A stretch of 6,870 nt of DNA from a virus (Duplodnaviria > Heunggongvirae > Uroviricota > Caudoviricetes): the IMG/VR virus record IMGVR_UViG_2660238600_000004, one strand, 5' to 3'. This document shows, piece by piece, positions 1 through 6,870 of the stretch. The first letter of the stretch is position 1. Every line of letters begins with the position of its first letter. A program made the translations under genes and the position numbers. Under the pieces are notes generated by a model. The model saw only the letters and a program-made list of their open reading frames with translations. It was not told the DNA's origin and made no database searches.

Positions 1-1284
1 TTACTTCTTCGCCTCTGCAACCACTTTACTACCCACGCCGCGGTTATTGTATTCCCACATGCGGTTGTAGTTAGTGTCATTCAGATTGCGCTGTATTTCG
101 TCGTTATCATCTACGCTGCCGGTATTACCCGCAAACGGACGATTAGAGATCACCGCATCGGCCCACGGTTTAGCCGTGTTAAAACCTTCGTTGATGGCGC
201 TATCACGGATCACCACCTGACCGTTGGTATTGGCATCAACATCCAGCGAGCGGCCCAGTTGCGCCACACCATCACCGAAAGCATTGAAACGGCTGTTTAC
301 GGCGAGGAAACCGTAGTAAATGTTGGACAGCGTAGCCGGTGCAAACACATACGCTTCTTGCTGAGTACGTGAGTTCACCACGCGGAATTCGGTGTTATCG
401 AACACCACTGCGCCGCGACCAGAAACGATATCCACATCCCCTTCAATGTAGCTGTTGGTCACCAGCGTACGCGGCTGACGATTCGTTTCCAGACGGTTCT
501 GCACACCGCTGTTGGTGACAAAGAAGGTGTTCTGACGACCGAGAATGTTAACGTTGTTAATCTGTACCTGGTCACCATCAGTACGCAGTGCCACCGCCGG
601 ATGGTTACCTGCATCTACGCTATCGCCCAGCGTGTTTTCGATGGTCAGATTTTGCAGTTGCAGGCCATTGTTTTGTGACCAGAAGACCGCAGAGCAGAGA
701 ACACCGATACTGTCGCTGCGTTTGCTCTGGCAGCTATCGTACATATACCACGCTGGTTTACCTGGCATATATTTGCCGCGCGGGTTGACGTCGTGACGCC
801 AGTCGGCAGGGCTCATGCCACCATCAAGGGAAAGCCCAATCTTCACATCAATCGGTTTTTCACCTGTACCGTACAGAGTAATTCCACCCGGAGCGGCAGG
901 GACATATACCGTTCCCTGATACTCACCAGGCATCACGGCAATATACTGGCGCTTGTTGGTACGCTTGATAATTGCCGCATCTACCGCCGCCTGAATCGTG
1001 GTATGCGTTACACCTTGAGTGCCCGCCGGGCCGACAACAAAGTCAGGTTGCGCAGGCAGGGTAATCGGGGAAGGATTCCACGCTGCAGCACCTGGTGTCA
1101 GGGATGCAAAATAGTGTTGAGCATCGAAATTCTGCGCTTCTTTTGCCGACAGAATCGGGCGAGAAGAGGTACCAGGCGCGGTTTGATCAGAAGGACGTTG
1201 ATCGGGCGGGGTTGAGCTACAGGCGGTCAGCGTCACGCCAAAAGCCAATGCCAGCGCCAGACGGGAAACTGAAAATGTGTTCAC
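1..1284 (-). CDS. ybhC: YbhC-like putative lipoprotein (pectinesterase-family / acyl-CoA thioesterase-like), host chromosomal gene flanking attL
   Basis: Complete 427-aa ORF with GTG start at 1284 and stop at 1-3. N-terminus MNTFSVSRLALALAFGVTLTAC has a signal peptide and lipobox-like LTAC. Position immediately beside the lambda att core matches the known ybhC-attB-ybhB arrangement in E. coli. Identity is recalled, not searched. Confidence 0.8.
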   Translation of the reverse strand: MNTFSVSRLALALAFGVTLTACSSTPPDQRPSDQTAPGTSSRPILSAKEAQNFDAQHYFASLTPGAAAWNPSPITLPAQPDFVVGPAGTQGVTHTTIQAAVDAAIIKRTNKRQYIAVMPGEYQGTVYVPAAPGGITLYGTGEKPIDVKIGLSLDGGMSPADWRHDVNPRGKYMPGKPAWYMYDSCQSKRSDSIGVLCSAVFWSQNNGLQLQNLTIENTLGDSVDAGNHPAVALRTDGDQVQINNVNILGRQNTFFVTNSGVQNRLETNRQPRTLVTNSYIEGDVDIVSGRGAVVFDNTEFRVVNSRTQQEAYVFAPATLSNIYYGFLAVNSRFNAFGDGVAQLGRSLDVDANTNGQVVIRDSAINEGFNTAKPWADAVISNRPFAGNTGSVDDNDEIQRNLNDTNYNRMWEYNNRGVGSKVVAEAKK

Positions 1285-2962: not shown

Positions 2963-3134
2963 GCTGTTCATTGCTGCTATACACTTTTTTGCTCTCAACG
3001 TAAGCGGTAGCCCATTCTGTTGGGTTGGTGCAGTTGCTTTTAGGAAATGCTATTTACCCCTTAAATGTCGGCTGAAAGAGCTAAAATCCATGCAAAAAAT
3101 TTACGCAATTTTGTGTATTATTGTGCAGTAAGTA

Positions 3135-3737
3135 ATGAGCTATTTTCTGCGCAAAAAATGGATGGTAAATTTGTCCGGGTCAGGAAAAATTTTATGGGCG
3201 CTAAACATGAAAAAAGATTCGTATCCTTATTTGATTTGCATGACAGTTTCAGGGCTGATCTTTATTTTCCTTTTCTTCTGGTGGCGGGCAGATATCTACA
3301 GGGTCACGTTTCTTAATCAGAGTATATCCCACTATTACATTCTGTTTAGCATGGGAATAGCTTTTCTGTTATCTCTGTTTTGGGTTAAGAAGGGGATAGT
3401 AAAACAAAGCGGCTGGAAGAGTCTGTCAGCATACATTAAGGTTTATGCAGGGATGTGCATATTTGCTGGATTTTTTCTGATTATACCCCTTACGACACTA
3501 ACTTATTTTTTGCCTGGAGAGACATCGTCTTATGTTGCACCGTATCGGTATACTTCCGGTAGTTCAAAAAGTTGTTCTGGAGCTGAGGTGGATGACCCCG
3601 ATCTACATGAGAATATTCGCATTTGCTATCCGTATGGCAATTATGAGTACGATAATATTATCTATGTTGAAAAGAAAATTAATATATTAGGTGCGGTAGT
3701 GACATATGCACAGACCGCGCGTGATGATACTGAATGA
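3135..3737 (+). CDS. Hypothetical membrane protein, 200 aa: three predicted N-terminal TM helices plus an ~75-aa C-terminal soluble domain; AT-rich moron on the strand opposite the early-left operon
   Basis: Complete ORF. Hydrophobic stretches PYLICMTVSGLIFIFLFFWW, SHYYILFSMGIAFLLSLFWV and YIKVYAGMCIFAGFFLIIPLTTLTYFL. Base composition is visibly more AT-rich than the flanking lambda-like DNA. A hairpin terminator follows. Start codon is uncertain (in-frame ATGs at 3135, 3162 and 3207, none with a strong SD). I recognise no family. Confidence 0.6.
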   Translation: MSYFLRKKWMVNLSGSGKILWALNMKKDSYPYLICMTVSGLIFIFLFFWWRADIYRVTFLNQSISHYYILFSMGIAFLLSLFWVKKGIVKQSGWKSLSAYIKVYAGMCIFAGFFLIIPLTTLTYFLPGETSSYVAPYRYTSGSSKSCSGAEVDDPDLHENIRICYPYGNYEYDNIIYVEKKINILGAVVTYAQTARDDTE

Positions 3738-4906: not shown

Positions 4907-5583
4907 CGCCATTGCTCCCCAAATACAAAACCAATTTCAGCCAGTGCCTCGTCCATTTTTTCGATGAACTCCGGCACCATCTCGTCAAAACTCGCCATGT
5001 AATTTTCATCCCGCTCAACCACGACATAATGCAGGCCTTCACGCTTCATTCGTGGGTCATAGTTGGCAAAGTACCAGGCATCTTTTCGCGTCACCCACAT
5101 GCTGTACTGCACCTGGGCCATGTAAGCCGACTTTATGGCCTCGAAACCACCGAGCCGGAATTTCATGAAATCCCGGGAGGTAAACGGGCATTTCAGCTCA
5201 AGGCCATTGCCGTCACTGCATAAACCATCGGGAGAGCAGGCGGTGCGCATACTTTCGTCGCGATAGATGATCGGGGATTCAATAACATTTACGCCGGAAG
5301 TGAACTCAAACAGGGTTCTGGCGTCGTTCTCGTACTGTTTTCCCCAGGCCAGCGCTTTAGCGTTAACTTCCGGAGCCACACCGGTGCAAACCTCAGCCAG
5401 CAGGGTGTGGAAGTAGGACATTTTCATGTCAGGCCACTTCTTTCCTGATCGGGGCTTTGCTATCACGTTGTGAACTTCTGAAGCGGTGATGACGCCGAGC
5501 CGTAATTTGTGCCATGCATCATCCCCCTGTTCGACAGCTCTCACGTCGATCCCGGTACGCTGCAGGATAATGTCCGGTGTCAT
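4903..5583 (-). CDS. exo: Lambda exonuclease (Red-alpha, 5'-3' dsDNA exonuclease), 226 aa, intact
   Basis: [71 protein letters not shown]...[10 protein letters not shown], recognised as lambda Exo. Its start overlaps the bet stop in ATGA fashion. Confidence 0.95.
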
Positions 5584-5774
5584 GCTGCCACCTTCTGCTC
5601 AGTGGCTTTCTGTTTCAGGAATCCAAGAGCTTTCACTGCTTCGGCCTGTGTCAGTTCTGACGATGCGCGAATGTCGCGGCGAAATATCTGGGAACAGAGC
5701 GGCAATAAGTCGTCATCCCATGTTTTATCCAGGGCAATCAGCAGAGTGTTAATCTCCTGCATGGTTTCATCGTT
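5580..5774 (-). pseudogene. bet: 3' fragment of bet (Red-beta), C-terminal ~64 codons only; N-terminal ~200 codons absent
   Basis: The minus frame reads ...[64 protein letters not shown], matching the lambda Bet C-terminus as I recall it. Immediately upstream the frame reads SYPAQPS after a stop at 5796-5798, instead of the Bet sequence (..ERDITPV..). Homology therefore ends near 5775. Confidence 0.8.
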
Positions 5775-5797
5775 ACTTGGTTGAGCAGGATAGCTTC

Positions 5798-5980
5798 ATG
5801 GCTAGGTTGGCTGAAATGGAAAAGGAACTCAGTGAGGCAAAACAGGCTGTCATTCTCAACGCACCACGCCACCAGAAACTGAAGGAAATTAGTGAAGGTA
5901 TTGTGTCGATGTTTCGTGTGGACCCAGATCTGGCTGGTCCATTGATGGCGATGGTTACTACCATGCTGGGGGCGATATGA
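5798..5980 (+). CDS. Hypothetical small protein, 60 aa (MARLAEMEKELSEAKQAVILNAPRHQKLKEISEGIVSMFRVDPDLAGPLMAMVTTMLGAI); possibly a remnant of a gene upstream of O
   Basis: ORF with AGGA 7 nt upstream of the ATG at 5798. The track starts it at a TTG at 5777. It lies exactly at the bet truncation joint. No HTH or known family recognised. Confidence 0.3.
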   Translation: MARLAEMEKELSEAKQAVILNAPRHQKLKEISEGIVSMFRVDPDLAGPLMAMVTTMLGAI

Positions 5981-6066
5981 CAGGTTCAGAAATGGCGAAA
6001 GCCGGTCTGCTGGAACAGAACCGACTTTCAGGTGCAAATCGTAACACACTCATTGCGGGAGGAATT

Positions 6067-6870
6067 ATGGCAAACACTGCTGAGATATTCAATTTTCCAG
6101 TGCCGGATGCGGCACAAAAGGAGCCGCGCGTGGCAGATCTCGATGATGGTTATACGCGCATTGCAAATGAGTTGCTGGAAGCTGTGATGCTGGCCGGATT
6201 AACACAGCACCAGCTTCTGGTCTTCCTAGCTGTCATGCGCAAAACATATGGCTTTAATAAAAAACTGGATTGGGTGAGCAACGAGCAACTGTCCGAATTG
6301 ACCGGGATATTGCCGCACAAGTGTTCTGCTGCAAAAAGTGTTCTGGTAAAGCGTGGGATTCTTATTCAGAGCGGGCGGAATACCGGCATTAATAATGTGG
6401 TCAGTGAATGGTCAACATTACCCGAATCAGGTAAGAAAAATAAAGTTTACCTGAAAGAGGTAAATTTACCTGAATCAGGTAAAAAAAGTTTACCCAAATC
6501 AGGTAAAGACGTTTACCCGAATCAGGTAAACACAAAAGACAAACTAACAAAAGACAATATAAAACCTTTTTCGTCCGAGAATTCTGGCGAATCCTCTGAC
6601 CAGCCAGAAAACGACCTTCCTGTGGAGAAACCAGATGCTGCAATTCAGAGCGGCAGCAGGTGGGGGACAGCAGAAGACCTGACCGCCGCAGAGTGGATGT
6701 TTGACATGGTGAAGACCATCGCGCCATCAGCCAGAAAACCGAATTTTGCAGGGTGGGCTATACCGCCAGCTTGGTTGATAAAAAATGGTTGCGACTGGCA
6801 GCAAGGAGGAGTCATGGCTGATTTGAGAAAAGCAGCGCGTGGTCGGGAATGCCAGGTAAGAATCCCTGGC
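6067..6870 (+). CDS. Lambdoid O-family replication initiator (N-terminal iteron-binding domain plus internal origin); 3' end not defined in window
   Basis: GGGAGGA SD at 6056-6062 and ATG at 6067. Translation MANTAEIFNFPVPDAAQKEPRVADLDDGYTRIANELLEAVMLAGLTQHQLLVFLAVMRKTYGFNKKLDWVSNEQLSELTG...VSEW parallels the lambda O N-terminus (MTNTAKILNF...VADLDDGYARLSNMLLEA...LRKTYGWNKPMD...SQLSEIT...ISEW). The frame stays open to the window end. Sequence after about 6755 appears to derive from ninE/ybcO-like DNA, so the native 3' end is probably missing. Confidence 0.8.
   Translation, partial: MANTAEIFNFPVPDAAQKEPRVADLDDGYTRIANELLEAVMLAGLTQHQLLVFLAVMRKTYGFNKKLDWVSNEQLSELTGILPHKCSAAKSVLVKRGILIQSGRNTGINNVVSEWSTLPESGKKNKVYLKEVNLPESGKKSLPKSGKDVYPNQVNTKDKLTKDNIKPFSSENSGESSDQPENDLPVEKPDAAIQSGSRWGTAEDLTAAEWMFDMVKTIAPSARKPNFAGWAIPPAWLIKNGCDWQQGGVMADLRKAARGRECQVRIPG
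6417..6530. repeat. Replication-origin iterons: five ~19-bp direct repeats, consensus TTTACCYRAATCAGGTAAA, each an internal dyad (TTTACC..GGTAAA)
   Basis: Copies at about 6417-6435, 6446-6464, 6465-6483, 6489-6507 and 6512-6530, all inside the O-like coding frame. They encode a repeated LPESGKK-like peptide. Layout is as in ori-lambda but the repeat sequence differs. Confidence 0.8.
6531..6590. other. AT-rich tract immediately after the iterons (candidate DNA-unwinding region of the origin)
   Basis: cacaaaagacaaactaacaaaagacaatataaaacctttttcgtcc is strongly A/T-rich. Its position relative to the iterons mirrors ori-lambda. Confidence 0.6.
6756..6821 (+). pseudogene. ninE-like 3' fragment (reads ..GYTASLVDKKWLRLAARRSHG-stop); no in-frame start codon upstream
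   Basis: The frame ending in TGA at 6819-6821 gives a C-terminus I recall from prophage NinE proteins. The same frame has a stop at 6702-6704 and no ATG after it. The stop overlaps the next ATG (ATGGCTGA). Identity is from memory. Confidence 0.4.
6814..6870 (+). CDS. YbcO-like (DUF1364, cysteine-rich putative nuclease of the nin region) protein, 5' end only; continues beyond window
   Basis: Strong SD AAGGAGGA at 6802-6809 and ATG at 6814. MADLRKAARGRECQVRIPG matches the N-terminus I recall for E. coli DLP12 YbcO. Confidence 0.5.
   Translation, partial: MADLRKAARGRECQVRIPG

Follow-up and report, generated by a model that had tools for sequence, protein, structure and literature searches.

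Can a lambdoid replication origin still serve as a replicon once the prophage that carries it has been eroded from both sides? The question is raised by a stretch of 6,870 nucleotides (IMG/VR record IMGVR_UViG_2660238600_000004; hereafter the window), in which it had been predicted from the letters alone that an O-type replicon with five dyad-containing iterons, distinct from ori-lambda, is retained in a defective prophage. Lambdoid phages have been known since about 1978–81, from hybrid work with lambda, phi80, and 82, to divide into O/ori specificity types; PMC6022878 and PMC3349717 give the references to that work. On the evidence set out below, positions 6067–6760 are read as the 5′ three-quarters of a lambda-family O gene that carries an origin intact in cis, orphaned, and of a common non-lambda type, and not as a replicon; the probability of this reading is put at about 0.8.

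Results

A truncated O gene at one end of a decayed prophage

The window represents one end of a decayed Escherichia coli lambdoid prophage at the lambda attachment site. It contains ybhC (1–1284, minus strand), lambda-type int and xis genes identified by eye from their translations, and an ORF of 226 aa that has the size of exo and whose copy in the identical scaffold L025 matches PF09588 (YqaJ). The stretch at 5580–5762 presumably represents the last 60 codons of bet, as it aligns with the C terminus of lambda Bet. The cII position, upstream of O, is taken by a YdaT-domain gene, of which a 3′ remnant of ∼67 codons is left (5777–5980, plus strand; PF06254, E = 1.3e-9; aligning with L003 at 3001–3209). 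At the far end lies the start of ybcO (DUF1364; 6805–6870, plus strand), which is in frame with the truncated O gene and continues past the end of the window. Scaffold L025, from an ENA metagenome, shows 0 mismatches to the window over 5054–6870, and in it the O′-ybcO fusion is followed by rusA and then ylcG.

The truncated O-type initiator gene occupies 6067–6760 on the plus strand, giving 231 codons from an ATG that aligns with Met1 of lambda O; a second in-frame ATG upstream, at 5977, is the start used by RefSeq. From the ATG at 6067 the frame is open to the end of the window. A Phage_rep_O DNA-binding domain (PF04492) was found at 6127–6411 on the plus strand with a Pfam E-value of 1.7e-34, corresponding to residues 51–145 of the protein that starts at 5977 and covering the profile in full (1–95). 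Over its first 115 residues the protein shares 49% identity with lambda O (E = 2e-34), and the predicted relationship of the N-terminal domain to lambda O is thus well borne out. The truncated protein can be aligned with lambda O and with a 339-aa homologue as far as ...KPNFAGWA, residue 231, which corresponds to residue ∼222 of the 299 in lambda O. Beyond ...NFAGWA there are 18 unrelated residues and then the YbcO N terminus. The complete C-terminal, P-interacting domain of O that belongs to a lambda-type module is therefore missing here.

As seen in L025, the frame that joins O′ to ybcO begins with the ATG at 5977, closes at the stop codon of ybcO, and is 375 codons long; automated gene calling gave a 370-aa product that starts at an internal ATG. 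Because this frame is open throughout, any transcription that enters the region could yield a fusion protein carrying a DNA-binding domain. A sequence search of the PDB with the full-length homologue returned no relative of solved structure, and the names attached to the protein clusters read just “replication protein (O)”, with no classical phage name among them.

Architecture of the origin region

Five dyads of the form TTACC-N7-GGTAA are found at 6418–6529, with starts at 6418, 6447, 6466, 6490, and 6513 and hence spacings of 29/19/24/23. These are iteron 1 (TTACCCGAATCAGGTAA, 6418–6434), an extra copy relative to four-iteron origins, iteron 2 (TTACCTGAAAGAGGTAA, 6447–6463), iteron 3 (TTACCTGAATCAGGTAA, 6466–6482), iteron 4 (TTACCCAAATCAGGTAA, 6490–6506), and iteron 5 (TTACCCGAATCAGGTAA, 6513–6529). 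A search with the consensus of the original prediction, TTACCYRAATCAGGTAA, at up to 2 mismatches gave 8 matches, representing the five sites, three of which are also matched on the other strand; shuffled sequence gave a mean of 0.01 matches, and 0 of 200 shuffles reached 8. The count of five sites thus stood, with minor amendments to their description: copy 1 agrees with the 19-mer over a 17-bp core only (ATTACC...GGTAAG), and the centre of copy 2 (GAAAGAG) is a variant one.

An AT-rich tract, ACACAAAAGACA...ACAAAAGACAATATAAAACC, follows at 6530–6572 and is homologous to the unwinding region of lambda, P22, and HK97. GC content falls to 0.28–0.37 over 6440–6599, compared with 0.47–0.63 on both flanks, so that the AT-rich tract proposed to follow the iterons is also found. 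After it comes an imperfect palindrome, GTCCGAG-N14-CTCTGAC (6573–6600), which is the counterpart of the right-arm palindrome of lambda ori. The iterons and AT-rich tract are positioned as ori-lambda is within lambda O, just after the DNA-binding domain, where this borders on the linker; all members of the family likewise have their origin within the initiator gene.

On the minus strand, a pO-like promoter (TTGAAT-17-CATAAT, with extended TG; 6064–6092) aligns with lambda pO and, as there, overlaps the O start codon. RNA from this promoter would contain a strong hairpin (5997–6029, minus strand; MFE −29.2 kcal/mol, z = −2.1), which is possibly that of an oop-like antisense RNA, although no clean U-tract follows it. 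An Rfam scan of the whole window at E-values up to 1 gave no match to an oop-like RNA. The same scan returned just three sub-threshold chance matches, to two miRNA families and one Listeria sRNA; two of these overlap the iterons.

Conservation of the repeats at the DNA level

Because the repeats lie inside an ORF and some of them encode similar short peptides (LPESGK, LPKSGK), they could in principle be a coding-sequence repeat only, giving a repetitive linker peptide, and not act as an origin at all. The five copies, however, fall in reading frames 0, 2, 0, 0, and 2, and their spacings are mostly not multiples of three. Copies 1–5 accordingly encode LPESGK, VYLKEVN, LPESGK, LPKSGK, and VYPNQVN, the second and fifth being read in another frame from the rest. 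Among 99 IMG/VR copies, which represent 67 haplotypes of a closely related population, 2 of 50 arm positions were variable, whereas the N-terminal coding region had 51 variable positions out of 351 (Fisher p = 0.043) and the centres and spacers of the iterons had 16 out of 62 (p = 0.0017); against all other sites the difference has p = 0.0039. The arms are thus conserved well past coding constraint.

The five iterons were found at identical offsets in 101 of 103 copies. In Klebsiella phages, the O genes of which are 78% identical in DNA (76% outside the arms), 49 of the 50 arm bases are kept at the same offsets. SEN34 and HK97, with more distant N-terminal domains, have TTAGC-N7-GCTAA in the same place, which amounts to a symmetric change in both arms, as would be expected of a dyad bound by a dimer. 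The position, the spacing, and the AT-rich neighbour are moreover homologous to the experimentally defined lambda origin (NC_001416). The coding-repeat explanation is therefore regarded as very improbable, and the pattern of conservation favours the repeats being sites that act at the level of DNA.

Comparison with known O/ori types

The iterons had been proposed to be distinct from those of ori-lambda, and this agrees with a comparison that was extended to phi80, HK97, and P22. The window motif, TTACC-N7-GGTAA, differs from ATCCCTC-N5-GAGGGA in lambda, TTCCCG-N4-CGGGAA in phi80 (the annotated gp15 sites), TTAGC-N7-GCTAA in HK97 and SEN34, and TTACC-N5-GGTAA in P22-like phages. Among characterised initiators, P22 gp18 came closest in a tblastn comparison, with 54.8% identity (N-terminal 135 residues), followed by lambda O (42.5%), HK97 O (39.7%), and phi80 gp15 (38.4%).

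In lambda (NC_001416), the iterons at 39034–39118 lie inside O at the same alignment position as those of the window. Downstream of them the two are very close, with 92.2% identity between window positions 6530–6760 and lambda 39119–39349, a segment that comprises the AT-rich tract, the palindrome, and the C-terminal half. The N-terminal DNA, in contrast, is only 53% identical (49% for the protein), lambda has four iterons rather than five, and the O gene of the window is truncated and lacks P and pR. Four iterons are spaced 20/24/23 in lambda, a P22-like phage, and HK97, whereas the window has 19/24/23 plus the extra copy 29 bp to the left. The Stx phages 933W and P27 also have additional iterons leftward of the core set of four, along with a corresponding insertion in O, but their iterons number six and are of the lambda sequence type (PMC7466680).

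P22 gene 18, as read from the P22-like phage SE1 (L015), shares the arms TTACC/GGTAA and the AT-rich tract ACACAAAAGACAATAT with the window, but its arms are separated by 5 bp rather than 7, there are four iterons, and the gene has another C-terminal half, which is paired with the DnaB-type helicase gp12 and not with a lambda P-type loader. The O genes of HK97 and SEN34 belong to the same family and have a 7-bp dyad centre with a spacing of 20/24/23 or 24/23; they differ in their arms (TTAGC/GCTAA), and their N-terminal domains are 40–56% identical to that of the window. In phi80 (NC_021190), four annotated initiator sites likewise fall within the O-like gene 15, upstream of which lies an oop homologue (M3 RNA), but the sites are of another sequence, and the N terminus is only 38% identical. 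In every member compared, ACACAAAAGACA... follows directly after the last iteron.

Across these relatives, iterons and N termini co-vary, with five iteron types matching five groups of N-terminal domain. Klebsiella relatives keep the N terminus (79% aa identity) and the iterons, with a different C terminus and loader. To judge from its sequence, the O gene is a mosaic of a type-specific N terminus with its iterons and a shared AT-rich tract with the P-binding half, and the pattern within the family makes an O/ori specificity separate from that of lambda likely.

Distribution of the O/ori type

Of 5426 complete E. coli genomes, 2158 (∼40%) contain the same O/ori, and window positions 5772–6760 are present at ≥95% identity in most of those 2158. 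The adjacent ydaT segment was found in 2213 E. coli genomes (BLAST, best place per record). The whole O′ segment also occurs in at least 15 phage records at 97.7–98.4% identity, next to a lambda-type P; carriers include 4A7, Lambda_4C10, Perceval, PhiR26_1, IdasGreatGrand, and others. A single protein cluster has 7825 members. The novelty implied by the original prediction does not survive these counts: a non-lambda iteron type found at ∼98% identity in 15 phage records and in 2158 E. coli genomes is widespread, its sequence is not new, and the feature is in that respect an ordinary one. None of the annotated records inspected mark the TTACC-N7-GGTAA iterons, and a literature search with the iteron strings found no paper. 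For an O/ori type carried by ∼40% of complete E. coli genomes, what can be offered is a checkable consensus, TTACC-N7-GGTAA repeated five times with spacings of 29/19/24/23, together with a further case of the classical rule that the O N terminus and iterons co-vary and the AT-rich tract and P-binding half are shared. Its importance is modest.

The resemblance to one classical phage is of interest in this respect. The origin of phage 82 is said, in work by Grosschedl and Hobom in 1979 and by Moore et al. in 1981, to combine a type-specific O N terminus and iterons with an O C terminus and P that are reportedly lambda-compatible. The ninE-ybcO-rusA nin region of prophages with the present origin resembles that of phage 82 and DLP12. 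From this context, namely five iterons, a lambda-compatible C terminus, and an 82/DLP12-like nin region, the origin of the window is suspected to be of the phage 82 type. Literature searches on ori82 and the phage 82 origin returned mentions in reference lists only, and the collection of phage genomes yielded no record of phage 82.

Deletion joints and missing replication functions

That the prophage is deleted on both sides, as had been supposed, is confirmed by two joints, bet′/ydaT′ at ∼5775 and O′/ninE′ at ∼6760. At the left joint (5772–5779), the 3′ part of bet′ (minus strand) meets the 3′ part of the YdaT-domain gene at the microhomology GTTA, bet sequence extending up to 5775 and the match to the YdaT-domain gene beginning at 5772; the window reads TTGG here, compared with CTGG in all relatives. 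The left deletion lost gam, kil, the immunity genes, pL, pR, cro, and two-thirds of the gene in the cII position. The right joint (6758–6761) connects O at codon 231/232 to the 3′ end of ninE through a TA microhomology, with O matching up to 6760 and the ninE end from ∼6758. The ninE remnant (6761–6812, plus strand) is read in the O frame as the 18-codon linker IPPAWLIKNGCDWQQGGV. Lost on this side were O codons 232 onward (∼77 residues), P, ren, and the nin genes up to late ninE.

P lies directly after O in intact relatives; it is absent from the window and from L025 within 1.5-kb flanks, and ren is absent from the window. Nor does rightward transcription from pR pass through or near the origin as in a lambda-type module, the immunity region having been deleted, and a consensus scan found no sigma-70-like promoter on the plus strand in 5500–6870, although promoters of low strength may be present. 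The arrangement of the window was absent from the 5426 complete E. coli genomes, from GTDB representatives (searched with the right-joint string), and from IMG/VR; elsewhere it was found only in the one ENA metagenome scaffold, L025. Other decayed copies of the O region have different joints.

The cis-acting DNA, by comparison with phage copies, is undamaged, as had been proposed. Over the 694 nt of 6067–6760, two phage contigs from IMG/VR match the window exactly, and the 10 differences from the population consensus are all polymorphisms shared with 6–30 of 99 phage copies, leaving no private substitution.

Discussion

Status of the origin

We infer from homology that O binds the iterons, that the origin fires, and that its specificity differs from that of lambda. 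In relatives with a complete module, phage 4A7 among them, O dimers would, as in lambda, assemble on the iterons into an O-some, upon which the AT-rich tract would open; the C-terminal domain of O would recruit P-DnaB, and rightward transcription from pR would assist, as for lambda-type origins. In the window, this machinery was taken apart by two illegitimate, microhomology-mediated deletions, and O′ became fused in frame to ybcO. What remains could be expected to fire only in trans, with full-length O and P from a phage of the same type as well as transcription of the region. Such firing by a related phage is possible but handicapped, since all the factors that act in trans, and the promoter that activates the origin, would have to be brought in from outside; a co-resident phage of the same type may supply O and P in the host genome.

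The term replicon used in the original prediction cannot be kept: O ends its homology after residue 231, a loss of the C terminus that the prediction itself had named as counting against it, and P, ren, and the promoter region are gone. Intact origin DNA and an open O frame might still be taken to indicate an autonomous O-type replicon. The C-terminal 77 residues of O have, however, been swapped for unrelated sequence, P is lacking from the window and from the 1.5-kb flanks of L025, and the pR/immunity region is deleted; in lambda O, the C-terminal region is the P-binding domain, and even its last five residues are essential (PMC6022878). Autonomy is accordingly barely conceivable, and the prophage at this locus cannot replicate by itself.

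A different role has been considered, in which the retained block (the pO-like promoter, the oop-like RNA, the DNA-binding domain of an O protein that lacks the end that binds P, and the array of iterons) would act as a replicon-type-specific decoy or dominant negative against superinfecting or co-resident phages of the same type, to the benefit of the host or of the remnant itself. The block does keep the parts that a plasmid needs to inhibit rep-lambda phages, namely oop from pO and iterons 3–4 (Hayes et al., PMC3349717), and ectopic copies of ori-lambda block lambda replication (PMC4488673). The pO-like promoter is conserved, the O′ frame is open into ybcO, and the arrangement recurs without change over 5054–6870 in an independent metagenome scaffold. 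The published effects, however, come from multicopy plasmids, whereas the window represents a single chromosomal copy. The consensus scan gave no promoter for O′, and other decayed copies have different joints, as neutral decay predicts. The absence of the arrangement from the 5426 E. coli genomes, GTDB representatives, and IMG/VR means that there is no sign of its having spread by selection. This role is therefore thought unlikely, although, if the decoy were real, incoming phages that share this very common type of replicon would replicate less. Little credence is likewise given to the speculation that the orphaned block is active, whether as such a decoy or by being fired in trans so as to amplify the ybhC side of att-lambda, and that, separately, ∼5775 is the site of a site-specific break. 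An origin intact in cis and orphaned by two deletions, as proposed above, remains the preferred reading.

A recurrent joint near 5775

It was also noted that five unrelated left partners are joined at one identical nucleotide of the ydaT-like gene, the joint falling between ...TAC and CTGGTTGAGCAGG. These partners are bet′, exo′, int′, a ydaS/cro-like gene, and a P22-like cII-DUF2740 module, and each joint has 2–4 nt of microhomology inside GTTAC. As the lookup behind this observation could return joints within ∼70 nt, a span estimated from upstream in-frame codons, the coincidence is not an artefact of the search. All 169 of the 169 IMG/VR copies are intact at the joint site. Joint patterns gave 0 matches in IMG/VR, 0 in GTDB representatives, and one unrelated chance match in JGI metagenomes. 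The idea that an IS3-family element formerly occupied the joint found no support, its pattern (CA+TACCTGG...) giving 0 matches in IMG/VR. Two candidate causes were rejected: a large serine recombinase, which some of the loci with such a joint lack, and an EcoRII cut at CCTGG, which would fall to the right of the TA microhomology that the joints have in common. The intact site reads GGTTACC, that is, GGTNACC, a BstEII-type restriction site, and a site-specific break at ∼5775 followed by microhomology joining would fit. This recurrent joint is more unusual than the origin itself and could merit a systematic survey of lambdoid prophage decay.

Recurrent deletion joints in the decayed prophage and related loci

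One identical nucleotide of the ydaT-like gene (...TAC/CTGGTTGAGCAGG) was found joined to five unrelated left partners, namely bet', exo', int', a ydaS/cro-like gene and a P22-like cII-DUF2740 module. This joint lies at 5772-5779 in the window, at ~7980 in each of the compared loci L016, L017 and L018, and at ~1480 in locus L027, with 2-4 nt of microhomology at the joints. The same position is undisrupted in all 169 IMG/VR copies. Its intact sequence, GGTTACC, is a GGTNACC restriction site. The pattern suggests a hot spot for site-specific breakage. At 5776-5780, the window and the metagenome scaffold L025 have CTTGG versus CCTGG in all relatives; the inner C of a Dcm site (CCWGG) has thus become T, as expected of 5-methylcytosine deamination.

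At the opposite end, the right-hand deletion placed the truncated O gene (O') in frame with ybcO, with the 3' end of ninE lying between them and read in another frame (window 6761-6870; 1680-2807 in L025). The predicted fusion product of 375 aa would join the DNA-binding domain of O to a putative nuclease (DUF1364). Further O' fusions from decayed copies are represented by proteins P0024, P0032 and P0002. In two of these, one fused to the C-terminus of YbcO and one to RusA, the joint falls directly after iteron 4 (after ...SLPKSG), and in one fused to an MT-A70-like protein the break is two codons past the right joint of the window. Judging from these joints, deletions may tend to end within or close to the origin.

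Origin geometry and the start of O

Start-to-start iteron spacing is 20/24/23 bp in lambda, HK97 and a P22-like phage (L015) alike, despite differing iteron sequences among the three origins; the array thus keeps its geometry better than its sequence. The iterons at 6447-6529 in the window are spaced 19/24/23. Two Klebsiella phages (L010 and L012) share the O N-terminus and five-iteron origin of the window but differ in the O C-terminus and carry a DnaC/AAA-type loader in place of lambda P, a combination that marks the AT-rich tract as the module boundary.

A pO-like promoter (TTGAAT-17-CATAAT, extended TG) is present on the minus strand within 5997-6092 and, as in lambda, overlaps the O start codon. 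Downstream lies a hairpin with a 14-bp stem and no clean U-tract. The minus-strand RNA of this region is possibly an oop-like antisense RNA; an Rfam scan gave no match for it. A second in-frame ATG at 5977, overlapping the stop codon of the gene before it (ATGA), would add 30 codons to O. In RefSeq and in phage 4A7 the annotated O begins at the equivalent ATG (339 aa), whereas in lambda and the Klebsiella and Salmonella relatives O starts at the equivalent of 6067. Because annotations differ and the extension (5977-6066) overlaps the oop-like region, both starts are kept as candidates.

Accessory genes

Between ren and the nin genes, phages with the window-type replicon often have genes for a small multidrug-resistance protein (QacE-like) and a 508-aa large serine recombinase, as seen in phage 4A7 (L001, 5495-7609) and also in loci L018 and L020. 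In the window, a plus-strand ORF of 200 aa (3135-3737), with hydrophobic stretches as judged by eye, sits between xis and the exo-side genes on the strand opposite to its prophage neighbours and may be a moron.
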